Assembly (NCBI GenBank): GCA_963836315.1
Contig: CAWIJG010000002.1
Location: forward strand, 867,001 to 931,000
Direction of reading: 5' to 3'
Length of the DNA: 64,000 nucleotides
Origin: an uncultured Verrucomicrobiae bacterium
GTDB taxonomy: Bacteria > Verrucomicrobiota > Verrucomicrobiia > Palsa-1439
Positions 1 to 12,654 of the stretch are shown piece by piece (the first letter of the stretch is position 1; each line of letters begins with the position of its first letter). A program made the position numbers and the translations under genes. The notes under the pieces are model-generated. The model made no database searches, was not told the origin of the DNA, and saw only the letters and a list, made by a program, of their open reading frames with translations.

Positions 1-362
1 GGATGGTGGTTTCTTGGTTCATGGTGTGTCCTTTTAACTCACACACTTATCCACACCAAGTGTCCACCAAATCGGGGCAAGGGCAGTTTACACTGGCCAG
101 CCACGGAGTGAATTCTTACCATCAGAGACTCGATCTGCTGCCCTCGTACTTCAAATTCCATCCACGCATCACCAGTCCCGCCGCCCGCTTTTCGTTATCA
201 TTCTGAGCCGACGCTCCGCCACGTCCCCGGCCGCCTCCCCGCTCCGAGTCGTTTGCGGAACTGAATTCTGGTTCTTCCTTCAACCTCCCGTCTCCCGGCT
301 CGCGTGTCGTTTACGGAGTCTGTCTCCTGAATCCTCTCGCTCCACACCACCCGTCGCCCGCC

Positions 363-389
363 ATGATATGCTCCAGTGGAGCATATCAT
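363..389. repeat. 27-bp perfect palindrome ATGATATGCTCCA-G-TGGAGCATATCAT (13-bp arms)
   Basis: Read directly: 363-375 is the exact reverse complement of 377-389. Lies in an ORF-poor region. Confidence 0.9.
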
Positions 390-499
390 TCAAAAGGGGG
401 GAGTCGTTGACCTCTGACATATTCCGGTTTGCAGGCCGCTCAGTCCCTTACCCCGCCTCTTTCCGATCATCGTCCCTCAATGCCACAGCCGAATGCCTG

Positions 500-520
500 A
501 GACATCAGTATCTGATGTCT
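500..520. repeat. Inverted repeat / hairpin AGACATCAG-tat-CTGATGTCT (9-bp arms, 3-nt spacer)
   Basis: Read directly from sequence; arms are exact reverse complements. Confidence 0.8.
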
Positions 521-931
521 GAAGCCGGGCGTTGTCCCGATTTGAACTGGCTAAATTCAGCTTCCAGTCGCATTCTCTCGTCAAGCCAGCCAGGGCATGG
601 TGATAATCAGGAGCGTTTATGAAGTTCAGAATAATCCTGCCGAGTATCTACGCGATTCTTTACATCAATATCGGTTATTGTGGTGCTCACCGCGAAGGGG
701 ATGTTTGCGGGGTTTTGGTCAATTTGTGTGACTACTCCCTGGAGTGAACTTCTGCCATTGTTGCTCTATAAACTCTTTGAACCGCTTCCCCCGAATCCGT
801 GGTTTACGTGGTCTGTTCAAATCGCTTTTGCCGCATTCAACGGGCTGATTTATTTCTTTACTGGGTGGGGAATTGATAGCTGGCTGGCGTCGCGCAAACG
901 GTAGTTATCGCACCATCTACCACACGGGAAG

Positions 932-974
932 CCGAGTCCGACGGAGCCGAAACGAAGCTAAACCGAGTCCGACG
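932..974. repeat. 12-bp direct repeat CCGAGTCCGACG, two copies (932-943 and 963-974)
   Basis: Read directly; copies are identical and 31 bp apart, within the ORF-poor leader region. Confidence 0.7.
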
Positions 975-981
975 AGATGCC

Positions 982-1003
982 CTATCGGGCAAACGCCCGA
1001 TAG
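982..1003. repeat. Inverted repeat / hairpin CTATCGGGC-aaac-GCCCGATAG (9-bp arms, 4-nt spacer)
   Basis: Read directly; exact reverse-complement arms. No U-tract on either strand, so not a canonical terminator. Confidence 0.8.
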
Positions 1004-1266
1004 AGCAAATGCCGCACGTCGTACTCCCGCGGCAACCTCTGGCGCGACGGCGGACCCGCGTCCCCCGTCCCGATAGATGTCACGTGTCCGGCTGACGAAC
1101 CCACGCATCGTCAGACGAACCGTCTTGCCACCTCAACTCGCCGTGCGAAAAGCTTTATCCGCCTAAAAAGCCGTGCCCGACGACAGCACCCAGTCCGCCA
1201 ACAGGGTTTTGACACTGAAACTCTTCTTCTTGGTCTTATTATTGACAGTTTCACTGGCCGTGGCAC

Positions 1267-1683
1267 TCACCGTGACCGTCTCCAGCACCGGTACCCGGTC
1301 TTCGATAGCTTGACCTTGGAAATCTTCAGGCTTTTGACAGTGATGGTAATCCCCGGCGGGATCTGGGCCAGGACAAAATCCACCACGTTGCTTTCCAGCG
1401 CTGCCTGGCCGTCGGCGCCAACCGCCAGCGTCAGTTGTTTCGTCGTGTTTGTATAAGTTCCGTCGACCTCGTTGGTCCCGACCAGCAGACTCCACGTTCC
1501 GTCATCCAAAAACACGGCGGTCGCCGCGTTCGTCTCCGCCACTTTAAGCTTGCCGACCGATAATAGGTTTATGGCGTTCACGTCCCAGACTGAATTCGTG
1601 TTCGCGCCGAACGCCGCCAACTGCCCGATGAATCCCGCCAGACATGCCGCCACCAAACAAACAACCCCTGTGTGTTTCCTCAT
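1267..1683 (-). CDS. Hypothetical secreted protein (N-terminal signal peptide)
   Basis: 138-aa ORF with ATG at 1683. N-terminus MRKHTGVVCLVAACLAGFIGQLAAFGA is signal-peptide-like. No recognisable domain. Confidence 0.5.
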   Translation of the reverse strand: MRKHTGVVCLVAACLAGFIGQLAAFGANTNSVWDVNAINLLSVGKLKVAETNAATAVFLDDGTWSLLVGTNEVDGTYTNTTKQLTLAVGADGQAALESNVVDFVLAQIPPGITITVKSLKISKVKLSKTGYRCWRRSR

Positions 1684-1877
1684 GGTCCTGCCACCTTTCT
1701 AATTTGGCGCCGGATAACGGGCTCGCGTGTGTACACCACACCTCGCCTCGTTGCCAGACCCGGCAACCGGTTAAGTTTTCTCACGCCTGCGACGCCCGCA
1801 CCATTCCACAAGACAAGGCCCCCGTCAAGCCACTCCGCTCTATGGGGTCAACGCTCACTCACGCATTGCCTGTCCGG

Positions 1878-2717
1878 TCACTGCTCGCGCTGCATGAAGG
1901 GATTCCGTCTGCTCCGCGCCGTGAGCCGGTGGACATTGTCCCCCACCTTCCGCATCCACTCCAGCTCCTCCTCGGACAACGGGCCAAGTTCCAGCGTCTT
2001 GAGGTTGGCCTCCATCTGTTCCGCCGTCGCGGGTCCGGTCAGACAAACATCCACATCGGGATTCGAAAGCACGAACCGATAGCAGTCCACCGCACTTGGT
2101 GTCCGTAAGCCGATTGGCGTATTCCTCGGGTCGATCAGCGTCCCCCATCGAGTGCCGGTGTAGCAGACCACTCCCGCCTTCGGTTCGCCCTGCCTCTCCA
2201 GATACGGGAACGCCTCTTTCTCTGCCCCCCGGTGCGCGGCGTTGTAGCGCATCATCAGCACGTCCACTCGCAAGTCCCTCGCAAATTGCTGGAACATCCG
2301 CCGGTCGTGACCGGACACCGCGATGTGCCGAACCCGGCCACGCTCCCGCAGTTGCAGGGCTCTCTCCATCAGCCGAGGGGACAGCGGCCCGTTGTGCCAG
2401 CCCAGCAGCAGAATGTCGGCGTAATCCAACCGCAAGCCGCGCAGCCCCGATTCGATCCTGTGTCCGAGCAGGAGGCCATGGCGCGAATACGACTGCAGCA
2501 CCACCACGATCTTGTCCCGATGCCGACTCGCGATATGACGGATGGCGTCACCCATCCCTTTGCGCCGCGCGCTGCCCCAGTAGAAGTAGTTGCACCCACG
2601 CTCAAACGCCTGTTCGTACGCTCCGGCGGGTGCGCCGTATGAGGAGCCGAAACCCAGGCGGCCCACCCTCAGTCCGCTGCGGCCCAGCACCCGTGGCATT
2701 GTGAAACTATTCGTCAT
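1878..2717 (-). CDS. Aldo/keto reductase family oxidoreductase
   Basis: 279-aa ORF. Overall AKR-like sequence (LGFGSSYGAP..., YADILLLGWHN, RHIAVSGHD). ATG at 2717. Confidence 0.7.
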   Translation of the reverse strand: MTNSFTMPRVLGRSGLRVGRLGFGSSYGAPAGAYEQAFERGCNYFYWGSARRKGMGDAIRHIASRHRDKIVVVLQSYSRHGLLLGHRIESGLRGLRLDYADILLLGWHNGPLSPRLMERALQLRERGRVRHIAVSGHDRRMFQQFARDLRVDVLMMRYNAAHRGAEKEAFPYLERQGEPKAGVVCYTGTRWGTLIDPRNTPIGLRTPSAVDCYRFVLSNPDVDVCLTGPATAEQMEANLKTLELGPLSEEELEWMRKVGDNVHRLTARSRRNPFMQREQ

Positions 2718-2726
2718 TGCGTCGAA

Positions 2727-3623
2727 TCAAGCATGCAACTTCTTCTCCGGCCAATCTGCCAGTGGTGGAATCCCATCACGACCTCCCAGCCGCAGGCTCA
2801 CGCGGGCCGCCGCCCAAGCCCCGAAATCCAGACACCCCGCCGCATCCCAGCCTTGAACCAAACCGTAGATGAATCCCCCATGGAACACATCCCCGCACCC
2901 CGTGGTGTCCATGGCTTGCACCCGATAGGCGGGTCTCTCGATCACCCCGCCCCGATCCAACGCCACATATCCCTTCTCTCCAAGGGTGACTCCGACAACT
3001 CGTGGCCCCAACTCCGCCAGCCGACGGCAGGCCTCCAAGGGCCGGTCGTCGCCAATGAGGGCCCGGGCAAACGTCGCCGACGCCACAAAACAGTCGCTCT
3101 GCTTGGCCAATTCCAGCATCCCTTCCCGCAGGGTGCCGGCATCCACCACAACCTGAATCCCCGTTGCCCTCGCAATCTTCGCCGCCGCCAGCGACGCCTC
3201 GATGAACAGGCCGTCGGTGTGCAACACCCGCGCCGATCGAATGAGATCGTGATTCAGTTCGTTCGGCCCCAACGCCACTCCCGTTGGACGCCGCCAAAAA
3301 ATAGTGCGCTTTCCGGTTCCCGCCTCCACCGCGATGAACGCGAACTGGGACCCGCACCCACGACGAACCAGAAGCCCGGTCGTATCCACCCGCTCCTCAT
3401 CAAGGCTGCGTCTGATCTCCTCGCCGAACGAATCCTCGCCGATGACACCGGCGATCGCGCAGGAGATCCCCCAGCGAGACAACGCCACCAGCGCGGTGGC
3501 CACCGGTCCGCCGCCTTGCACGGTCATGTCTTTGAATTCGCACTTGGTATCGGCCTCCGGGTAGGACGGAACCAGGGCAAGGTGATCCAGTGCACACTGC
3601 CCCAGTCCGTAGACCTGAATCAT
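2727..3623 (-). CDS. PfkB-family carbohydrate kinase (ribokinase-like)
   Basis: 298-aa ORF with the PfkB signature DTTGCGDVFHGGFIYG near the C-terminus. ATG at 3623. Confidence 0.8.
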   Translation of the reverse strand: MIQVYGLGQCALDHLALVPSYPEADTKCEFKDMTVQGGGPVATALVALSRWGISCAIAGVIGEDSFGEEIRRSLDEERVDTTGLLVRRGCGSQFAFIAVEAGTGKRTIFWRRPTGVALGPNELNHDLIRSARVLHTDGLFIEASLAAAKIARATGIQVVVDAGTLREGMLELAKQSDCFVASATFARALIGDDRPLEACRRLAELGPRVVGVTLGEKGYVALDRGGVIERPAYRVQAMDTTGCGDVFHGGFIYGLVQGWDAAGCLDFGAWAAARVSLRLGGRDGIPPLADWPEKKLHA

Positions 3624-3811
3624 TGTCGTGTCACCGGTTCGTGGGACTTCCGTCCGGTAACCCGCTCGTAGGCTCTGCCGAACGGACAGATCCGTCCCTC
3701 GACTCTCCTGACGAACTCATACGCCAGGCCGCGCTGCTTGCGTCGCGCCTGATGGCAGACCGGACAGTTCTCGCACACCGTGGCGAGCACTTTGTCTTGG
3801 CGGGGGTTCAC
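3620..3811 (-). CDS. Possible small Cys-rich protein (CxxCxxC...CP), translationally coupled to the PfkB kinase
   Basis: 63-aa ORF whose TGA overlaps the kinase ATG (ATGA at 3620-3623). Motif VCENCPVCHQ...ICPFG. GTG start only; a plus-strand shadow ORF covers the same DNA. Confidence 0.2.
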   Translation of the reverse strand: MNPRQDKVLATVCENCPVCHQARRKQRGLAYEFVRRVEGRICPFGRAYERVTGRKSHEPVTRQ

Positions 3812-3940
3812 GTGTCGTCACAGTATCACCTCTGACCACGCTGACAAGTGTGGAACAACAGGAGTTCGCAGGTCGCTCACTTGACTTGCTTCGGAGACGG
3901 ACGAGTATTCTGACCATGCGGCATAAACACTCTGTTCGTC

Positions 3941-4903
3941 ATGAATGAAATCCTCGGGTTTATGGTTCGCCATGGGTTGCCGGTCTTGTTCGTGATCGTC
4001 TTCATCGAACAATTGGGCGTGCCTCTGCCGTCCCCGCCGTTTCTCTTGGCTGCGGGCGGTCTGGTGGGCATCGGCAAAATGAATCCCATGCTGGCGCTCC
4101 TTCTGGCTGCTGGGGGCTCGTTGGCGGCGGACACCATCTGGTTCTACCTCGGTCGCTATCGCGGCAGTCGCATCATAAAGCTTCTGTGCCGTATTTCGCT
4201 CGAGCCGGACACGTGTGTCTTGCGAACCGAGAACGTCTTCGCGCGCTACGGCACGCGCGGCATTGTGTTTGCAAAATTCATTCCGGGTCTTACCACTGTG
4301 ATGCCGCCGCTGGCAGGAATGTACGGGGTGAGCATCCGTCGGTTCCTCGCCTTCGACGGCCTTGGAGCGCTTCTTTATTCAGGGTGCTTCATTCTGCTGG
4401 GGCTTCTTTTCAGCAGCCAGCTCCAACAGGTGGCCGATGCGTTGGATCGACTGGGACGTGGCGCGCTTGTGCTGTTGGGGTCGCTTTTCGTGGCGTACAT
4501 CGCGTTTAAGTTCATCCAACGACAACGCGTGTTGCGGAAATTGCGCATCGCGCGAATTACCGCGGAGGAACTTCGTCAACGACAGGAAGGTGGTGAGGCG
4601 GTCTTCATCGTGGATCTGCGCTCGGAGTTGGCCGTCCAGGGCGACCCGTATCGCATTCCCGGCGCGCGGCATTTGCTCGCGGACAACGTCGAGAAATGGC
4701 TCCCCAATATCCCTCGCAATCAGGAGGTCATCCTCTATTGCTCGTGCCCAAATGAAGCCAGCGCCGCCCGTGCGGCGTTCATCCTCTACAGGCGCGGAAT
4801 CACCCGCGTCCGACCCCTGTTGGGAGGCTTGGATGCCTGGCGGGAGCGGAAATATCCGCTGGAACCGCACCTCGACTTCGCAGCCCAGGAACCAACCCGG
4901 TGA
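3941..4903 (+). CDS. DedA-family membrane protein fused to a C-terminal rhodanese domain
   Basis: 320 aa. N-terminal ~200 aa is DedA-like (FIEQLGVPLPSPPFLLAAG, multiple TM). C-terminal ~100 aa is rhodanese-like with a Cys loop (EVILYCSCPNEASAARAAFIL). Confidence 0.75.
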   Translation: MNEILGFMVRHGLPVLFVIVFIEQLGVPLPSPPFLLAAGGLVGIGKMNPMLALLLAAGGSLAADTIWFYLGRYRGSRIIKLLCRISLEPDTCVLRTENVFARYGTRGIVFAKFIPGLTTVMPPLAGMYGVSIRRFLAFDGLGALLYSGCFILLGLLFSSQLQQVADALDRLGRGALVLLGSLFVAYIAFKFIQRQRVLRKLRIARITAEELRQRQEGGEAVFIVDLRSELAVQGDPYRIPGARHLLADNVEKWLPNIPRNQEVILYCSCPNEASAARAAFILYRRGITRVRPLLGGLDAWRERKYPLEPHLDFAAQEPTR

Positions 4904-4954
4904 ATTCCGCCACCAATTCAGACCACCGCCTGATGCCGTAGTGTCTCAAGTTTC

Positions 4955-4971
4955 AAATCCGTTTCGGATTT
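4955..4971. terminator. Hairpin AAATCCG-ttt-CGGATTT between convergent genes (candidate bidirectional terminator)
   Basis: 7-bp stem, 3-nt loop, read from sequence. Sits between the DedA-rhodanese stop (4903) and the Usp stop (4975). No strong U-tract. Confidence 0.3.
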
Positions 4972-4974
4972 CAC

Positions 4975-5885
4975 TCACGCATCACTTGTCCCGGTGGCAC
5001 CGGAGGATTCTCCGGGGCGGTTCAGAAGGCGGTTGATCAGACCGCCGAGGCCGTGATCGGGTTCTGTATCGCCTCGCACCACTAGCACGGGTAATTCGGC
5101 ACGGTTGACGATTTCGCGGGTGATGTTGCCCATGATGTACCGGCGCAGCCGATCATGAGCAGGACAGGAACCGGACACTACCAAGCCGTATTCCGTGCGC
5201 TGCAATTCTGCCAGTAATTGATCCAGAACCAGGCCGTGTCGCAGGTGTACTTCGCACGGAACCGCCATCTTCTCGAGCAGCTCCTTCTGGTAGCGCAGGC
5301 AGCGACCGAGTTTGGAACTCGATTGCAGGATCTGGTCGACATCCTCTTCCGACTTGACCAGATTGGCATAGACGGCCGGCGGTTCCGCCAGAACGTGCAG
5401 CAAATCAACCGTCGTATTCACACACCGCGCAATCTCCCCGGCCATTTGCACCGCCGCGTCCGCTTTATGCGTGCCGCCATCGCATACCAGAATGCGACGC
5501 AGTTGGGTGCAATCGCCGATGACCACCAGCACCGGCGGTTCGACCGATTCGATGATCTTGTAGGCGCGGGCCGACACCCACAACGGTCCCCGGTCCCTTT
5601 GCGTACCGCCCCGACCACCACGAGATCGTATTTGGCCTCCCGCGTCCGCTTGATGATCTCACGCACGGGGCGGCCGGCCTTGGTGATCAACTCGGCATTG
5701 AGATGATACTCCTTCAGGATTTCTTGCGCTCGTCGAAGCGCCTGCAACACCGTGTCCTCCTGGCCCGCCTTTTCGACAATTCCCAGGATCGATGCCTCCG
5801 CCTGGCATGCCGCCGCAATCGATGCGCCAAATCGCACCGCGTTCTCCGCCTGGATTGAACCGTCGCTGCAGAAAAGGATTTTCAT
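4975..5885 (-). CDS. Tandem universal stress protein (two UspA domains), interrupted by an apparent 1-bp frameshift
   Basis: Domain 1 (MKILFCSDGS...DLVVVGA) is in the frame starting 5885. After a frame change within 5583-5612, the other frame continues the same domain (...VSARAYKIIESVEPPVLVV) and a full second domain (RRILVCDGG...ELPVLVVRGD). C4 runs at 5588-5591 and 5609-5612. Confidence 0.7.
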
Positions 5886-5901
5886 GCGTTCATCCGCTTC
5901 C

Positions 5902-6828
5902 TTAGAAATGGTGGCCTGTCATCAGGCTGTAAATGATCAGTCCGGCCCCGAGCAGCGGCAGGGGCACGAACGCCAGCCGGATGCGTGTGCCGTGAAAGTA
6001 CTGGGTCAACGTCGCCCCGATTTGCGCGCCGATGGCCGCGCCCGTGTGCATGACCAGCGCGATCAGGATGTCCACGTTGCCCTTGATGGCGTGTGTGAAC
6101 GTTCCGTAGCTCGCCGAAATCACTACTTCGAACAAATCGGTCCCGACCGCCACGTGCGTGGGCACGCCGAGTATGTACACCAGCGCCGGCATGCGGATGT
6201 AACCCGCCCCGCCGCCGAGGAATCCGCTGAACACCCCGCCGATATAGGCCACTCCCAGAATCGTCCACAACGAGATCTGCTGAATGCCGGAACTGGGCAG
6301 GGAAATCATCGGCGGAAAATGAAACCGATGGAACCTCTTGGCGATGTAGGCGATGGCCGACCGGTCTTGCTTGGGTTTGCCGGGTGTCGCGGATTTGGCG
6401 CCGACGGCTTCCTTCCCCATCTTCATGGTTTGCCAGCACTCCCACGCGATGAAGGACGAAATCCCGACGAGCACGATAACAAACGCGATGGCCACCACTA
6501 CGTCCACGTTCTTATGGCGCTTCAACTCCTGAATGATTTGCGCCCCGGTCTCGACCCCTACGATGGTGGCGGATGCCATGATCAACCCGAGCTTGATGTC
6601 CACGTTGCCCAGCGCGCGATGTTTCTTTGCCGCCACGATTGATTTTCCGACGATGTGCGCCAAATCCGTGCCCACCACGAAGTTCATCGGCACCCCGAAC
6701 GCGAACAGCGCCGGCCCCGCCAGAAAGCTTCCGCCAACGCCAAAAAAACCGCCGCAGATTCCTATAATGAATCCGATGATAATCAGGTAAACGGGATGGA
6801 TGTGGGTGCCGGAAATCAGGAAATCCAT
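5902..6828 (-). CDS. TauE/SafE family sulfite/anion exporter (DUF81)
   Basis: 308-aa polytopic membrane protein with two internally repeated halves and Gly-rich TM helices (GICGGFFGVGGSFLAGP, GGVFSGFLGGGAGYIRMP), typical of TauE/SafE. Confidence 0.75.
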   Translation of the reverse strand: MDFLISGTHIHPVYLIIIGFIIGICGGFFGVGGSFLAGPALFAFGVPMNFVVGTDLAHIVGKSIVAAKKHRALGNVDIKLGLIMASATIVGVETGAQIIQELKRHKNVDVVVAIAFVIVLVGISSFIAWECWQTMKMGKEAVGAKSATPGKPKQDRSAIAYIAKRFHRFHFPPMISLPSSGIQQISLWTILGVAYIGGVFSGFLGGGAGYIRMPALVYILGVPTHVAVGTDLFEVVISASYGTFTHAIKGNVDILIALVMHTGAAIGAQIGATLTQYFHGTRIRLAFVPLPLLGAGLIIYSLMTGHHF

Positions 6829-6831
6829 GTC

Positions 6832-7035
6832 TTACCTCTCCCGGCTCCGAATGACCCGCAACAGTGCGGTGGTGAGCATTTCCAACCCAACGCCCTGTAT
6901 GATGATCAACGCGAGCGCCACGATCGCGTACACGGTCTTGTTCTGGTCGAAGATGTGTTTGAGCCAGCCGCCGAGAAAATGGAGGACCAGAAAAAAATAT
7001 GCAAACACGAAAACGGCGTACACGCCCAATTCCAT
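6832..7035 (-). CDS. Small membrane protein (2 predicted TM helices) immediately upstream of TauE
   Basis: 67 aa from ATG at 7035 (MELGVYAVFVFAYFFLVLHFLGGW...). Its stop is 3 nt before the TauE start. A GTG at 7080 is an alternative start. Confidence 0.4.
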   Translation of the reverse strand: MELGVYAVFVFAYFFLVLHFLGGWLKHIFDQNKTVYAIVALALIIIQGVGLEMLTTALLRVIRSRER

Positions 7036-7188
7036 GAGGAACGAACTCAGTGACGCACTTTTCTTGGAGCGACTCGCCACGAGGTTTCTGTGACCTCCTT
7101 TACAGTCTCACTGTAGCATGTGTTGGGAAATCCGCTCAGAATTTAAGGCCGGCTGCGCCACCACCGTCGCCCGGTGCCGGGGAAATGC

Positions 7189-8418
7189 TCAAATTGCCGT
7201 GTCCATGATCTCGCCCGGAATCTTTTCCCCGGTGGCGATGGATTTTCCGCCAGCCAACCCCAGAGCCAGCGTGACCAGGCTCATCGCCGCGAACAGGCCG
7301 ACGCATCCCGGCCAGCCGCCGTTCAGCCAAAACCACGCGGGCAGCGCCGTGCCCACGCTGCCGCCGATGTAATAGAAAGTCACATACAGACCGGCGGCGG
7401 AAGAACGGGCGCGGCCCGCCACCTGGCCGGTTAGCACCGTCGCCGATGCTTGCGAGACAAACATGCCGGAGGAAAATATCGCCAGCCCGGCAATAACCGT
7501 CGGCAGCCAGTGTACCAGCGTCAATAGCAGCCCACTCAGGCTCATGCCCACGGCCAGCAACGCCGTGCGGCGAAAGCCGTTGCGATCCAGGAATCGTCCC
7601 GCCAGCGGGGTGACGACGCAGCCAAACAGATAGATGGAAAACACGCTGCCCAACTCGGCGGTGCTCAAACGAAACGGCGGGCGGGCGAGAAAAAAGTTCG
7701 CGTAGGTGAACACGCCCACCAGCGAGAACAGCACCGTGAAGCCCATGCAGCAAATCAAAAGCAGGCGCGGGTTTCGCAAATGCCCCCACGTGTCGCCGAG
7801 GGATTTGAACACATGCTGGCCGGGAACAAAATTCCTGGCCAGCGGCAGCCACTGCCGCACCGCCAACGCGCCCAGCAAATCCAAAACGCCCAATACGATG
7901 AACGCCGCATGCCAGTTCCAGTACGCGGCGATGACGCCGGTGAGAAATCGTCCCAGAAAACCCCCGAAAACCGTTCCCGCCACATACGCGGACATCACGG
8001 TGCCGGTCCTGCCCGCGAACTCCTCATTGATGTAGGCGATGATCACGGCGATGACGCCGGGGACGAATACCCCTTGCATGAAGCGCCAGAAAATAAGCGC
8101 GGACAGGCTTCGGGCCGTGGCCGCCAGCAGCGTGGGTACCGCCATCGCGAAAAGGGCGGGCACGATGACTTTCTTCCGCCCAATGCTTTCCGCAAGCAGG
8201 CCAATCACCGGGGCCGTGATGGCGACCGACAACGTGACGGCACCCACGGTCAAACTGACCTGTACCTCGGTCGCGTGAAAGAAGTTCTGGAAGAACGGCA
8301 GCAGCGGCTGCGTGCAATAGACGTTCAGAAACGTGCCGGCCCCCGCGATCATCGCGGCAAAAACGGCAAACCCAAACGGCTTTTCCGCCTGCGCCGCCGA
8401 TGTTGCGACCGAATTCAT
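7189..8418 (-). CDS. MFS transporter
   Basis: 409 aa, 12 predicted TM segments, MFS-like loop motif (AESIGRKKV). Confidence 0.8.
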   Translation of the reverse strand: MNSVATSAAQAEKPFGFAVFAAMIAGAGTFLNVYCTQPLLPFFQNFFHATEVQVSLTVGAVTLSVAITAPVIGLLAESIGRKKVIVPALFAMAVPTLLAATARSLSALIFWRFMQGVFVPGVIAVIIAYINEEFAGRTGTVMSAYVAGTVFGGFLGRFLTGVIAAYWNWHAAFIVLGVLDLLGALAVRQWLPLARNFVPGQHVFKSLGDTWGHLRNPRLLLICCMGFTVLFSLVGVFTYANFFLARPPFRLSTAELGSVFSIYLFGCVVTPLAGRFLDRNGFRRTALLAVGMSLSGLLLTLVHWLPTVIAGLAIFSSGMFVSQASATVLTGQVAGRARSSAAGLYVTFYYIGGSVGTALPAWFWLNGGWPGCVGLFAAMSLVTLALGLAGGKSIATGEKIPGEIMDTAI

Positions 8419-8526
8419 GAGTCAACAGCATAGGGGCGAAACGCGCGGAAAGGAAAATCAATAAAACGGGGCCAGCTCTTACTTTCGAAGCGCGAAATCC
8501 AAAACTTGTGTTTCGTTCCTCGTGTT

Positions 8527-10044
8527 TTATTCTTCTTGTGCTTGTCCTGTCGCCGCGGCAATCACTCGTTCAGCCGTGGCTTCCTGCCGACTGAACTCCG
8601 CGACGATCCGGCCCTCCCGCATCACGAGAATCCGGTCGCTCATCGCCAACACTTCCGGCAGATCGGAGGAAATCATCAACACCGACATGCCCGCCGCGGC
8701 TAGCTCGGCAATAAGCCGATGCACTTCCGCTTTCGCGCCGATGTCGATGCCGCGCGTCGGTTCATCGAGCAGCATCACCTTCGGTTTGGTCGCCAGCCAT
8801 TTTGCCAACACCACCTTCTGTTGGTTGCCACCCGATAATTCCCGGAGGGGCTGCTCGATGTCCTGCAACTTCACGTCGAGACGATTGACCTCGCCCTGCG
8901 CAACCTCCCGCGCCTCCGCGTCTCGCCGCCAACCAAATCTCGCCAGCCGGTCGACAATCGCCAGCGTCGCGTTCTGCCACACGCTCATCGGCATCAGCAC
9001 GCCGTGGTGTTGACGGTCCTCCGGCACGAGCGCCACCCCTTTCGCCATCGCCTCGCGTGGCCGATTGTTCTGGACCGCTTCTCCATCGACAAGGATTTCC
9101 CCGGCATCGACCTTCTCGATCCCAAAAATCGCACGCGCCACTTCCGTCCGTCCCGCGCCGACCAATCCCGCCAGCCCGACCACTTCACCGGCGCGCACCC
9201 GCAGATTAATGTCCGAGAATTGTCCCGCACGCGTCAACCCGCGCGTTTCCAGCAAGGTGGCGCCAATCCCATGCCTCGCTTCCCGGGCAAACAACGTTTC
9301 CATCGGGCGTCCCACCATCAACCGGAGAATCTCGTCAATCGACGTCTCTTTCGTCAGTCGTTCGCCGACGATTTCGCCGTCGCGCAACACGGTGATGCGC
9401 TCGCAAATCTCAAAAATCTCCTCCAGCCGATGCCCAATGAATGCCAATGCCGCGCCCTGGTCGCGCAGCTGCCGCATGACTCCGAACAACCGCTTGACCT
9501 CGCTCGGCGTCAACGCCGCGGTCGTCTCATCCATCAACAGGATCTTCGCGTGCTGCGACAGCGCCGCCGCCATCTCCACCATTTGTCGGTCGGCAATCGA
9601 CAGCCCGCGCACCTTCGCCCGGGGATCAATCTTCACACCCAGCGATTCCAGCGTCTTCGCCGCCTCGCAAGCCATCGCTTCCCAGTCAATTCGTCCTTGG
9701 CGGCACGGTTGGCGGCCAATAAAAATATTCTCCGCCACGCTTAGATCGGGAAATGTCAGCGGCTCCTGATGGATCAACGCGATCCCCTGCGCAATGGCGT
9801 CGTGCGGACGGTGAAAGTGAACCGCTTGGCCGTTGACCTCGATCGCGCCGGCACGCGGCACGTGCACGCCGCCGATGAGTTTCGCCAACGTGGACTTGCC
9901 CGCGCCGTTTTCCCCAACCAGTCCATGAATCTCGCCGGGCAGCAATTCGAGATTGGCGTTCTTGAGCACATCCACGCCCCCAAACGTCTTGTGGAGGCCG
10001 ACGGCTTTGACCAGCGGCGTTTGTTCACTCATGGGAATCGCCAT
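8527..10044 (-). CDS. Sugar-type ABC transporter ATP-binding protein with two fused nucleotide-binding domains (RbsA/MglA/XylG-like)
   Basis: 505 aa with two Walker A (GENGAGKST; GLVGAGRT) and two signature regions (LSGGNQQK). Start is 12 nt after the upstream glycoside-hydrolase stop. Confidence 0.85.
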   Translation of the reverse strand: MAIPMSEQTPLVKAVGLHKTFGGVDVLKNANLELLPGEIHGLVGENGAGKSTLAKLIGGVHVPRAGAIEVNGQAVHFHRPHDAIAQGIALIHQEPLTFPDLSVAENIFIGRQPCRQGRIDWEAMACEAAKTLESLGVKIDPRAKVRGLSIADRQMVEMAAALSQHAKILLMDETTAALTPSEVKRLFGVMRQLRDQGAALAFIGHRLEEIFEICERITVLRDGEIVGERLTKETSIDEILRLMVGRPMETLFAREARHGIGATLLETRGLTRAGQFSDINLRVRAGEVVGLAGLVGAGRTEVARAIFGIEKVDAGEILVDGEAVQNNRPREAMAKGVALVPEDRQHHGVLMPMSVWQNATLAIVDRLARFGWRRDAEAREVAQGEVNRLDVKLQDIEQPLRELSGGNQQKVVLAKWLATKPKVMLLDEPTRGIDIGAKAEVHRLIAELAAAGMSVLMISSDLPEVLAMSDRILVMREGRIVAEFSRQEATAERVIAAATGQAQEE

Positions 10045-10056
10045 TGTGCTTCCCGC

Positions 10057-12654
10057 TCATCGCGCGAGCAATTGCACCGGGCCAAGGAGACCGCTCGGGT
10101 GCACCTGCGCTTGGACTGGATCGTAGTCTTTGTAGGCCCGGTTGACGAAAAAATACCCGGGCCACTTGCTCGGATCTTTCCAGTCGGTCGCAATGGGCGC
10201 GATGGCATTCTCGGCCCGGTTCGCCACCTTGACGACGATCTCGTTCTTTCCGTCGCGCACCAGACCGGTGACCTCAACCCGGAACGGAACTTCAAAAACG
10301 GTTCCCGCCGGCTTTCCATTCACGCTGACCGACGCGACATCGCGCACGTCGCCTAGATCCAAAATCACGTCTCCCCGTGGCTCACCAGACAGATGGAATG
10401 TTGTTCGATAGATCGCCGTGCCTGCGAAGTGTTTCAAGTCATCGGTCCCCGTCCAGTCAATCAACTGGGGGAAACTCCTTTCAAACGGCCTGCGCCCGTC
10501 GATGTGTCGGAACTCGACCCGCCACGGACCCTGGACTGTGGCGATTGGCTTCTCCGGGCGCGCCGGAACAGAGGCGCGTCCCGGGGCGGCTTTGTCGCGT
10601 CGGATCATGACCAAGCGCGACTCCTTCGGACCGATCTCGATGTCAGCCGCCACGCGTCCACCATCAACGTGGTACGAAGATGGTTCGATCTTGCCGCTGC
10701 GCGCGTCCCAGATTTCCAGACAGCCCTTCGCGCGGAAAGAAAACGTCTGGCGAATTTGATTCGTCGGTGACGGGTTGTGCAGCAGGAACAAATCATAATC
10801 GGCTCCCTGACGGTGCAACCAGCGGACTTGAGTCAGATCATCTGCCTTCAATTGCGGCTCGATATCCAAGCCTTGCAGAATTGCCGGGATGTTTTGCTCA
10901 TCGGCCAGATACGTGGTTCCTTTGCCAATCTTTCGCGGCGCTGTTCCTGCTTTCTCGAAGAAGAGATCCGCTGCATTCTGACGGAGCTCGGCTGTCTGCG
11001 CATCATGGTTCTTGAAAGTCGGGATTTCTGACGGCAGTTGCTCCGCCACAACCGTCAGGCCATCCTTAACCAGTGCCTGAACCTTTTCGAGCGTCTCCAA
11101 CGGCATGACCGACGCGTCCAGAATCAACACGCGGTAGCGGCTGGCTCGATCAATGGTCCGATCGGTCACACGATCAGACAACCATTGCGGCAAGCCCCGC
11201 GCGTTATAGACGCACACGTCCGCCACAGGCCGGCCCGAGCGAAGCAACAGGCAGTTGCGGCTCAGAGTATCGGCAAGAACGCGGAAGTACGGCCAGAAGG
11301 TATTGTTATGGTCGATCTCGCAGGAGGCGTAGAAGGTCCAGCCGGGAAAACCGGCGCCCGGCGGCGAATAATTATATCCGTGAAACACAAGTTGATTGGC
11401 GCCGTCGGCAATAATCTCATCCGCTTGTTGACGAAGATCGTGCAGGGTCACCCGCCAGTGTTCCGTCAGCCACGTGAAGCTTTCGCAGGAAACCACCGGA
11501 TGACCGTACACGTGCGCTGCCGTCAGCGCCATGTTGGCCCCAATGGCCGTGTCATCCGAAGATTTGAAATCCATCTCGAATTCGGGGAAGTCCGCCATCC
11601 CGTAGGAATCTTCCCAATCGGTCGGGCTGCCGTGCGCCTGTGCGCGTGATTGCAAGCCGTGCTGGTGGCTCCAGCGCGTCAGTTCCCCATAACAATTCTC
11701 CACGATCAGATCACGAAGCGTTTGTTCGTAATCCCATTTCACCTGCGCGGCGATGCCTCGACCCGACCCGTCGAGCAAATGCAGATAGGGCGTCAGGTCA
11801 TAACCGCGTCGCGCACGGAACTGTTGGAGAAAATCCGTCGTCCACGTGGGCCTGCCAAGTTCCCAACTGTCCATGAACAAGCTCTCGAACGTCGGGCCCG
11901 CAAGCTTGCCGACTCGATCCAGCACCGGCTGCACGCAATGGTCCAGATGAAAATCCATCGCGGCTGCGCTCAAATGATCCAATACCGGGCCTCTGTCCCG
12001 GGGATTCGCTCGTTTGTGCGCGCCCACCCCGCCAAGTTTCGCCCAAAAACACGTTGCCAACCATTTGCCTTCGGGCACAGACACGGAGATCTGCCCGTCC
12101 GACGGCAGTTCGTTAGTCACCACCTGTGCGGCCTCGACGGTCCCGTCCCGCCGCAACGTTACCGCAACCACCGGCCCGCGCGGCTGGAAGATCGCCTCTC
12201 GCTCCCCCGGGCCGTCGAGCGGAACCGTTTGTGACTCCAGGCTCTGGCCCGCATGCGCGTTATCAATCCATGGTCCGGCATACGGCCAGCCGCTTCCCGG
12301 AGTCAGGTCCACTTTCATGCCCAGCTTGGCGGCTTCCTCAATGCACGCCGCGACACGGTCCGCCCATTCGGGTGAAGCGTACACCACCGGCTTGTGGCCG
12401 GGCACCGCGGGCAAAGCATCGTACAAAGACTGGATCTCCACTCCCGCCAACCCTTGCTCCTTCATCCCCTTCAGCTCGCGCGCCAATTCCTGCCGCGTCA
12501 CCGCCCCGCCGAACCACCAGTAGCGCGTGCGCGGTCGGTATTCCATCGGCGGATTGGCGAAGTCGCGCTGCAGTTGCGCCGCCGTCGGCAACCCTTCCGC
12601 CATGGACGCGGATGCCAGGAAACCGCCGAACAGAATGGCGCAAAAAAGTCTCAT
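10057..12654 (-). CDS. Secreted glycoside hydrolase, possibly GH106-type alpha-L-rhamnosidase (family tentative)
   Basis: Start placed at internal ATG 12654, giving signal peptide MRLFCAILFGGFLASASMA; the track ORF extends into the upstream gene. N-terminal motif DFANPPMEYRPRTRYWWFGG resembles the GH106-like N-terminus. Confidence 0.6.
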   Translation of the reverse strand: MRLFCAILFGGFLASASMAEGLPTAAQLQRDFANPPMEYRPRTRYWWFGGAVTRQELARELKGMKEQGLAGVEIQSLYDALPAVPGHKPVVYASPEWADRVAACIEEAAKLGMKVDLTPGSGWPYAGPWIDNAHAGQSLESQTVPLDGPGEREAIFQPRGPVVAVTLRRDGTVEAAQVVTNELPSDGQISVSVPEGKWLATCFWAKLGGVGAHKRANPRDRGPVLDHLSAAAMDFHLDHCVQPVLDRVGKLAGPTFESLFMDSWELGRPTWTTDFLQQFRARRGYDLTPYLHLLDGSGRGIAAQVKWDYEQTLRDLIVENCYGELTRWSHQHGLQSRAQAHGSPTDWEDSYGMADFPEFEMDFKSSDDTAIGANMALTAAHVYGHPVVSCESFTWLTEHWRVTLHDLRQQADEIIADGANQLVFHGYNYSPPGAGFPGWTFYASCEIDHNNTFWPYFRVLADTLSRNCLLLRSGRPVADVCVYNARGLPQWLSDRVTDRTIDRASRYRVLILDASVMPLETLEKVQALVKDGLTVVAEQLPSEIPTFKNHDAQTAELRQNAADLFFEKAGTAPRKIGKGTTYLADEQNIPAILQGLDIEPQLKADDLTQVRWLHRQGADYDLFLLHNPSPTNQIRQTFSFRAKGCLEIWDARSGKIEPSSYHVDGGRVAADIEIGPKESRLVMIRRDKAAPGRASVPARPEKPIATVQGPWRVEFRHIDGRRPFERSFPQLIDWTGTDDLKHFAGTAIYRTTFHLSGEPRGDVILDLGDVRDVASVSVNGKPAGTVFEVPFRVEVTGLVRDGKNEIVVKVANRAENAIAPIATDWKDPSKWPGYFFVNRAYKDYDPVQAQVHPSGLLGPVQLLAR

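Follow-up and report, generated by a model that had tools for sequence, protein, structure and literature searches.

The gene at positions 3941-4903 of a 64,000-nucleotide stretch of DNA from an uncultured Verrucomicrobiae bacterium (contig CAWIJG010000002.1, positions 867,001-931,000; hereafter the window) encodes a protein of the DedA-rhodanese type. That this single gene combines a polytopic DedA/VTT membrane domain with a C-terminal rhodanese fold carrying C267-x-C269-P-N-E is well supported (Table 1). Judged by its codon for residue 269, it is the cysteine form of a family in which the second cysteine of the C-x-C alternates with selenocysteine (Sec). Within that family it is an ordinary Cys-form member, without informative neighbours. 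What is new lies at the level of the family, namely a Sec/Cys family with a four-cysteine signature that is undescribed in the searchable literature as either a selenoprotein or a redox enzyme. Because the second cysteine of the C-x-C is selenocysteine in many other bacteria, we tentatively read the protein as a membrane-tethered thiol/selenol oxidoreductase that may act in oxidative, electrophile, or quinone stress defence, a reading that in our judgement comes close to being probable.

The alternation at position 269 is apparent from a codon-level comparison of the best 80 genome loci, 72 of which could be parsed. The codon aligned to Cys269 is TGA in 37 of the 72 species genomes and a cysteine codon in the other 35, and never TAA or TAG. 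After the TGA, the frame continues with PNEA[TS]SAR[VA]A and stays open for 42-69 more codons up to a normal stop in all 36 complete loci, thereby encoding the conserved second half of the rhodanese domain (...RPLxGGxxAW...P). Sec forms predominate in Acidobacteriota and Rokubacteria, and some Gamma- and Deltaproteobacteria, among them Nevskia soli, have them as well; in Verrucomicrobiota and Nitrospirota, every locus has cysteine at this position, as does the window. Public gene calls truncate the Sec forms to about 268 residues and name them only “membrane protein DedA” (e.g., P0126, P0144, and P0151), and among the best 150 cluster representatives at 50% identity, 35 are proteins of this length that end exactly after residue 268 (...LYC[TS]). 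The pattern amounts to a systematic mis-annotation, in public databases, of a probable membrane selenoprotein. Literature searches combining DedA with selenocysteine or selenoprotein found no description of the DedA-fused forms as selenoproteins. The selenoproteome reviews (PMC13188914, PMC9312934) include a stand-alone CxU rhodanese (form 3, NF041203) and never mention DedA, VTT, or PF09335; according to the latter review, Sec/Cys pairs mark redox-catalytic residues (PMC9312934).

Every Sec locus carries a 6-bp hairpin resembling a selenocysteine insertion sequence (SECIS), AGCGCC-CG(U/G)G(U/C)-GGCGCU, at 18-35 nucleotides (nt) past the UGA. The third-codon-position entropy at four codons within the hairpin is 0-0.18 bit in the Sec forms versus 1.06-1.46 bit in the Cys forms, and the low value in the Sec forms therefore argues for a constraint at the RNA level, which a bacterial SECIS would be expected to show. 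The position of the hairpin and its G-containing apical loop agree with what we take to be the features of bacterial SECIS elements. The window gene itself does not qualify as a selenoprotein gene, as codon 269 is TGC and no in-frame UGA is present. Its hairpin at 4760-4779 (8 bp, -17.3 kcal/mol) is indistinguishable from shuffled sequences (z = -1.1), and a SECIS remnant in the window was rejected on this ground. As a separate observation, Cys-form Verrucomicrobial genes keep a hairpin at the SECIS position, which in L007 reaches 11 bp (at about 6817-6842 in L007 and L008); such a hairpin could be left over from a Sec ancestor or arise from the way S-A-A-R-A-A is encoded.

The residues around the alternating position form an atypical rhodanese active site. 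Sulfurtransferases of the rhodanese superfamily use a six-residue loop of the form C-X4-R/T, and the Cdc25/Acr2 branch uses C-X5-R. In alignments with structures in the PDB, Cys267 coincides with the canonical catalytic cysteine of 6mxv and 3tp9. The loop C-S-C-P-N-E-A-S, however, is acidic and two residues longer than CRTGGR--S of 3tp9; Glu272 occupies the position of the conserved arginine, and basic loop residues are absent. The window domain thus departs from the six-residue C-X4-[R/T] loop with basic residues of GlpE and PspE. A phosphatase or arsenate reductase of the Cdc25/Acr2 branch was rejected, as no arginine follows five residues after either cysteine in CSCPNEASAAR. Among close homologues, YCSCPN[ED] is invariant. 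Of the NCBIfam models, NF041203, “rhodanese-related (seleno)protein” (LYCAU, CxU), matches best, covering residues 199-309 with 75.1 bits, below its cutoff of 115. The motif of this family, L-Y-C-x-[U/C] with Sec/Cys alternation among homologues, is found in the window protein as LYCSC. Together, these features make the Cys-x-Cys active site non-canonical and suggest that the protein is no ordinary sulfurtransferase. The original prediction had described a Cys loop of a sulfurtransferase or phosphatase-like domain. The quoted loop CSCPNEASAAR is indeed present in the translation of 4736-4774 (YCSCPNEASAARA), but it is a C-x-C-P-N-E loop with glutamate at the arginine site and not the canonical loop of either enzyme type. 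The alternation of the second cysteine with Sec, combined with this loop, therefore favours thiol/selenol redox chemistry over sulfur transfer from thiosulfate to cyanide or a phosphatase reaction.

The fusion is a real gene and no assembly artefact, because an identical protein occurs on an independent contig and because the best 120 homologues all have both domains. The open reading frame (ORF) runs uninterrupted on the forward strand from the ATG at 3941 to the stop at 4901-4903 and encodes 320 amino acids (aa) plus stop. Pfam places PF09335 (VTT_dom) at aa 29-154 (E 1e-14; 55.5 bits versus a gathering threshold of 33.9) and PF00581 (Rhodanese) at aa 207-302 (E 9.6e-13; 48.9 bits versus 22.2), so both lie above threshold, and 120/120 of the best database homologues carry both families. 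The protein P0001, on contig L001 from the same species, is 100% identical to the fusion protein. Between the window (1-10188) and L001 (3701-13895), the same species assembled twice, nucleotide identity is 99.3% over 10.2 kb with 19 gap openings, none of which falls inside the fusion ORF. Moreover, the N-terminal MNE... start is conserved among homologues. An AlphaFold2 (AF2) model built from 109 homologues reaches a predicted local distance difference test score of 84 and a predicted template modelling (TM) score of 0.76. Foldseek matches this model to the solved rhodaneses 3gk5, 3mzz, 3iwh, and GlpE (1gmx) with target TM-scores of 0.73-0.87 and root-mean-square deviations of 1.5-2 Å, and sequence searches of the PDB match the rhodanese domain to 6mxv, 3tp9, and 3nhv. 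Neither the PDB sequence search nor Foldseek found a solved DedA structure, and the rhodanese part alone was matched. The predicted single ORF with a DedA part followed by a rhodanese domain is thereby borne out, and the fold, whose failure to appear in domain searches would have spoken against the original prediction, is backed by both Pfam and Foldseek.

A second cysteine pair lies in the DedA part, which shares about 23-26% identity with E. coli YqjA, YghB, and DedA in the alignment. The segment LLCRISLEPDxCvRRT is almost invariant in the family, with Cys83 in 138 and Cys92 in 137 of about 148 representatives; the three E. coli proteins have no cysteine in this segment. The complete four-cysteine signature is conserved over the 150 representatives and is likewise present in Ralstonia (LLCRLSLSPDSC ... 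IYCACPNEASA). Two loci of a distant Burkholderiaceae subgroup have a divergent segment: L096 (Cupriavidus sp. EM10; 5001-5914) and L097 (Paraburkholderia largidicola; 5001-5879) keep VYCVCP[NS]E, with V and T in place of Cys83 and Cys92 (LVRISLSLDT[ST]). The Cupriavidus copy in L096 shifts its reading frame mid-gene and is therefore a frameshift or pseudogene.

Both cysteine pairs are predicted to face the cytoplasm. In YqjA, V99, L117, and the C-terminus were mapped to the cytoplasmic side by the substituted-cysteine accessibility method (SCAM; bioRxiv 10.1101/2021.10.18.464800). In the alignment, V99 corresponds to Leu81 of the window protein, L117 to Val99, and the C-terminus to the end of the membrane domain, so that Cys83 and Cys92 are bracketed by mapped positions. 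The helix pattern of the AF2 model, in which short helices (31-43 and 106-127) lie between long transmembrane helices, agrees with the SCAM model of YqjA, as does the charge distribution: aa 190-206 after the last transmembrane helix contain seven K/R and no D/E, and the loop of aa 72-110 contains eight K/R and three D/E. Because of this positive-inside charge and the homology to SCAM-mapped YqjA, we infer an N-in/C-in topology with Cys83, Cys92, and the whole rhodanese domain in the cytoplasm. The cytoplasmic rhodanese domain proposed earlier thus gains support as a prediction.

YqjA and YghB depend on four charged residues, E39, D51, R130, and R136 (bioRxiv 10.1101/2021.10.18.464800), of which the window protein keeps counterparts of two, Glu23 and Lys112. 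The column of Glu23, the E39 equivalent, holds E or D in 102 of 135 aligned representatives, and that of Lys112, which replaces R130, holds K in 130 and R in 14. In contrast, the D51 equivalent is Pro32 (4034-4036) in a variable column (V/A/L/F/T/I) that is never acidic in the family, and the column of Thr118, at the place of R136, is occupied by S/N/A/G/T and never by arginine. The full set of four essential charged residues of a UptA/YghB/YqjA-type flippase is thus absent.

These features bear directly on the reading that annotation suggests at face value, in which a COG0586 DedA undecaprenyl-phosphate flippase resembling UptA or YghB is joined to a GlpE-type thiosulfate sulfurtransferase, as a tethered enzyme or as part of a membrane persulfide relay. 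This arrangement would account for the presence of both Pfam domains, for Cys267 at the canonical catalytic position, for the retained Glu23 and Lys112, for the name GlpE that homologues receive in annotation, and for the placement of rhodanese fusions in COG0586 by Todor et al. (PMC10127716). However, the equivalog models score far below their cutoffs, with 25 versus 102 bits for the NCBIfam GlpE model, 55.8 versus 250 for UptA (NF052604), and 43.6 versus 236 for PRK10847. The longer loop without basic residues and with Glu272 at the arginine position, the family-wide absence of D51 and R136 equivalents, and the Sec alternation at the second cysteine, for which a simple persulfide carrier would have no need, likewise speak against it, and even Todor et al. 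describe the link to undecaprenyl phosphate (UndP) as “unclear” (PMC10127716). We consider this combination unlikely.

We find it equally hard to favour a redox-gated transporter, in which the DedA domain would be an effector of lipid or ion transport and the rhodanese C-x-C, together with Cys83 and Cys92, a switch that follows the cytoplasmic redox state. Cys83 and Cys92 are invariant and stand just before the second re-entrant hairpin, which bears substrate-site residues of YqjA; both pairs are predicted to be cytoplasmic, the stress-gene context of relatives described below fits, and inactive or regulatory rhodanese domains are common. Nevertheless, the transport residues D51 and R136 are missing, and a subgroup retains the C-x-C without Cys83 and Cys92. 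We know of no example of a purely sensory Sec. Sec is typically located at catalytic redox sites (PMC9312934).

The surroundings of the relatives were surveyed in a census of 80 related genome loci, found by tblastn, within ±6 kb of the gene. A nitroreductase homologue occurs in 23 of the 80 loci, across four phyla and with both Sec and Cys forms; other recurrent neighbours are MarR (16), YceI (13), and a protein combining receiver (REC), glutaredoxin (Grx), and thioredoxin reductase (TrxR)-like parts (8). In Acidobacteriota, the Sec form stands in an operon of the order MarR - YceI - nitroreductase - DedA-Rhd(U) - WrbA, where the identity of WrbA is backed by 302.8 bits versus a cutoff of 141. 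Gammaproteobacteria show the order DUF302 - DedA-rhodanese gene - DinB/YfiT-like thiol transferase. Verrucomicrobial relatives (71-82% identity) carry upstream on the same strand AhpC-TSA, DsbA-like, DUF2630, ferritin, DUF302, hydrolase, glyoxalase, and PIG3-like zinc alcohol dehydrogenase (quinone oxidoreductase) genes, and downstream a DsbA-like gene, the REC-Grx-TrxR-like protein, and a histidine kinase that binds cyclic nucleotides (cNMP). In Ralstonia, the context of flagellar genes and an acetyltransferase is uninformative. WrbA, PIG3-type quinone oxidoreductases, nitroreductases, MarR-type regulators, and YceI, which binds polyisoprenoids, typically belong to the defence against quinones, electrophiles, and oxidants.

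Two of these downstream genes form a conserved pair in Verrucomicrobial loci (L002 and L003, 9550-12615; also L005, L006, L009, L012, L014, L016, L018, L021, and L055). The first encodes a 553-aa protein in which a receiver domain is combined with a segment resembling glutaredoxin or mycoredoxin and a domain resembling thioredoxin reductase, and the second encodes the cNMP-binding histidine kinase (466 aa); a response regulator with a flavoprotein disulfide reductase as its output is unusual. Further, in L082, Rfam identifies a group II intron (D1-D4, 130 bits) at 1762-1932 on the minus strand, some 4 kb upstream of the DedA-rhodanese gene from Dormibacterota.

The census also weighs on a role in the handling of soft metals or metalloids (Se, As, Hg, Cu), in which thiolates or the selenolate would bind the metal(loid) and the DedA domain would move it across the membrane. 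Four conserved cysteines could make up a binding site, rhodanese-fold arsenate reductases exist, and several metal-binding selenoproteins are listed in PMC13188914. Instead of recurrent ArsR, MerR, or metal-efflux neighbours, however, the loci show MarR, nitroreductase, WrbA, and YceI, and the acidic PNE loop, which lacks a C-X5-R motif, is ill suited to oxyanions; we regard such a role as very unlikely. A functional link to the adjacent Usp and TauE genes, by which sulfite or sulfonate export would be coupled to the rhodanese, is rejected by the census and hardly conceivable, since adjacency in the window and in L001 of the same species is opposed by convergent orientation, by TauE in 0/80 and Usp in 1/80 loci, and by entirely different neighbours in the relatives at 71-82% identity.

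For the membrane-tethered thiol/selenol oxidoreductase that we favour, the following mechanism can be proposed. The enzyme would sit at the cytoplasmic face of the inner membrane, with Cys269, the Sec equivalent, as the attacking nucleophile and Cys267 as the residue that would resolve the intermediate, giving a C-x-C disulfide. Cys83 and Cys92, in a cytoplasmic helix-loop adjoining the second re-entrant hairpin, are candidates for a second dithiol that would exchange with C267/C269. Reducing power could be supplied by cytoplasmic flavoenzymes or thioredoxin-type partners, which other lineages encode beside the gene. The DedA domain would serve as an anchor and would bind or present a lipid of the membrane, for instance a polyprenyl or quinone species; because two of the four YqjA/YghB residues are lost, it is probably no canonical proton-coupled undecaprenyl-phosphate flippase. 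The regulatory or sulfur-relay role at the membrane that had been suggested for the gene is compatible with this scheme insofar as a redox or sulfur role is plausible, but the ordinary sulfurtransferase or phosphatase chemistry implied by it is disfavoured by the loop and the Sec alternation.

A more ambitious version, which we hold to be improbable as a whole, would make the DedA-rhodanese proteins an unrecognised class of membrane-integral thiol/selenol oxidoreductases. Their C-x-[C/U] centre would work together with the Cx8C pair of the DedA loop on a membrane-lipid substrate (isoprenoid quinone, polyprenyl, or oxidised lipid) held in a repurposed, non-flippase DedA domain, and their genes would be co-regulated with the quinone-stress genes for WrbA, nitroreductase, YceI, and MarR.

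Several points weigh against the oxidoreductase. We infer Sec insertion at the TGA of the relatives from sequence alone. In 10 Sec-type loci, Rfam yielded only a tRNA and a group II intron and no SECIS family at its gathering score, a result that is uninformative because Rfam covers bacterial SECIS elements poorly. A distant Burkholderiaceae subgroup keeps C-x-C-P-[NS]-E without the Cys83/Cys92 pair, and a two-pair relay therefore cannot be universal. Given Glu23 and Lys112, some transport function of the DedA domain is possible. Furthermore, the redox neighbours of the relatives are all missing around the window gene, which lies among genes of sugar use (PfkB, aldo/keto reductase, major facilitator superfamily (MFS) transporter, ATP-binding cassette (ABC) ATPase, and GH106). 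The context also varies by phylum, as in Nitrospirota, where genes for resistance-nodulation-division (RND) efflux often follow downstream.

In the window, the gene is monocistronic, divergent from the PfkB kinase and aldo/keto reductase genes and convergent to the Usp ORFs (4975-5885, minus strand) and TauE (5902-6828, minus strand); the MFS, sugar ABC ATPase, and GH106 genes lie further out. These neighbours are unconserved in the 80 related loci, where PfkB and the aldo/keto reductase, in addition to TauE, are never found within ±6 kb. Thus, of the earlier description of the gene as convergent to a Usp-TauE module, the convergent position holds and the module does not.

Further observations concern these neighbours. 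The two Usp ORFs (5418-5885 and 4975-5583, both minus) overlap in different frames and resemble one tandem-Usp gene of about 300 aa with a frameshift near 5585; the split seems to be present in L001 as well, and either a genuine pseudogene or an indel error of long-read sequencing could lie behind it. TauE and the ABC ATPase, each unbroken in the window, are called as two or three separate genes in L001, which suggests indel errors in at least one of the two assemblies. Directly upstream of TauE, on the same strand and with a gap of 3 nt, an 82-aa hydrophobic ORF (6832-7080, minus) without a Pfam family may encode a small membrane partner of TauE. Finally, a 63-aa cysteine-rich ORF (3620-3811, minus; …VCENCPVCH…RICPFG…), which has no Pfam match and is not called in L001, overlaps with its stop the start of PfkB (ATGA), suggesting translational coupling.

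Table 1. Positions of the DedA-rhodanese gene and its parts in the window, and related loci with TGA at the codon of Cys269
Feature	Position	Strand	Basis
DedA/VTT-rhodanese fusion gene, whole	3941-4903	+	ORF list; Pfam; identical protein P0001 on independent contig
Glu23, retained equivalent of essential YqjA/YghB Glu39	4007-4009	+	Alignment; column counts over 150 cluster representatives
VTT/DedA core (aa 29-154), including predicted re-entrant helices aa 31-43 and 106-127	4025-4402	+	Pfam PF09335; AF2 secondary structure; alignment with E. coli YqjA/YghB/DedA
Family-specific, predicted cytoplasmic segment LCRISLEPDTCVLRT with Cys83 (4187-4189) and Cys92 (4214-4216)	4184-4228	+	Translation; alignments; column counts
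KFIPGLT, with Lys112 for YqjA Arg130 and Thr118 for essential Arg136	4274-4294	+	Alignment; column counts
Last transmembrane helix and Arg/Lys-rich linker (aa 173-206)	4457-4558	+	Translation; hydropathy; charge count; AF2 helix 173-200; YqjA SCAM
Rhodanese-fold domain (aa 207-302)	4559-4846	+	Pfam PF00581; PDB sequence matches; Foldseek
Active-site loop YCSCPNEAS with Cys267 (4739-4741) and Cys269 (4745-4747, TGC)	4736-4762	+	Translation; PDB alignments; TGA in relatives
TGA-form loci: L030, L032, L040, L041, L043-L050, L053, L054, L056, L058, L061, L062, L064-L067, L071-L073, L075-L078, L080, L082, L083, L085-L087, L090, L091	TGA at about locus position 6805 in most		

The two-domain architecture itself is already known, widespread, and catalogued by annotators. 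Homologues passing E<=1e-3 number 5,737 in a 90%-clustered protein database, and 545 clusters at 50% identity reach E<=1e-30. A genome scan built on a 12-sequence alignment finds DedA-rhodanese genes in at least 592 species-representative genomes, and the matches listed span Verrucomicrobiota, Nitrospirota, Acidobacteriota, Methylomirabilota/Rokubacteria, Binatia, Dormibacterota, and some Proteobacteria. Among these listed matches, the closest named relatives of the window protein belong to the Verrucomicrobiae/Verrucomicrobiia. Moreover, 158 PLSDB replicons carry such a gene, including the megaplasmid of Ralstonia solanacearum/pseudosolanacearum GMI1000. The prokaryotic genome annotation pipeline (PGAP) names the homologues “DedA family protein/thiosulfate sulfurtransferase GlpE”, and the Joint Genome Institute (JGI) names them [quoted passage not shown]. 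Todor et al. [quoted passage not shown] The survey across genomes that the original prediction had called for thus finds a widespread fusion and no novelty in the architecture.

DedA proteins are actively studied as undecaprenyl-phosphate flippases and polymyxin-resistance determinants. If the more ambitious version of the oxidoreductase reading is true, the DedA superfamily would gain a redox branch and the bacterial selenoproteome a polytopic membrane protein. The vague label of a membrane sulfurtransferase becomes a testable hypothesis of membrane redox catalysis, because the C-x-C with its Sec position, the loss of two residues essential in YqjA/YghB, and the quinone- and oxidant-defence neighbours all bear on it. 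Tractable hosts with homologues are available in Ralstonia solanacearum/pseudosolanacearum GMI1000, on the megaplasmid, and in P. aeruginosa (PA1209).

Among known systems, PA1209 and the COG0586 fusions share the described architecture, with PF09335 at the N-terminus, PF00581 at the C-terminus, and a similar length (311 aa). In the corresponding papers (PMC10127716, PMC12893004), the rhodanese counts as a generic sulfurtransferase, and there is no mention of a non-canonical loop or of selenocysteine. NF041203, referred to as “Rhodanese-like form 3, CxU” in PMC13188914 and PMC9312934, shares the L-Y-C-x-[U/C] motif and the Sec/Cys alternation at its second position; its members stand alone at about 126 aa, whereas the window domain is fused to a 200-aa membrane protein and has cysteine instead of Sec. 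GlpE and PspE have the same rhodanese fold and a cysteine at the canonical catalytic position, but their loop reads C-x-x-G-x-R/T, whereas C-S-C-P-N-E-A-S is longer by two residues, acidic, and carries a second Cys/Sec.

On the membrane side, E. coli YqjA/YghB and B. subtilis UptA share with the window protein the VTT/DedA domain, the Glu39 equivalent, and a positive charge at the position of Arg130; the predicted helices of the window protein are compatible with the re-entrant-hairpin model of YqjA, and its predicted topology is likewise N-in/C-in. Unlike them, the window protein lacks equivalents of Asp51 and Arg136 and has an additional cytoplasmic cysteine pair and a C-terminal rhodanese. 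Precedents for a rhodanese tethered to or fused with a membrane domain are E. coli YgaP and TsoB (NF045694). YgaP differs by its N-terminal rhodanese, two C-terminal transmembrane helices, and a canonical loop. TsoB, a rhodanese/DsbD-fusion-like protein, is similar as a selenoprotein fused to a thiol-redox membrane module, but it carries a UxxxxU motif and its membrane part is of the DsbD and not the DedA type. The layout of two cysteine pairs is reminiscent of DsbB, VKOR, and DsbD, with the difference that the pairs of the DedA-rhodanese proteins are predicted to lie on the cytoplasmic face.

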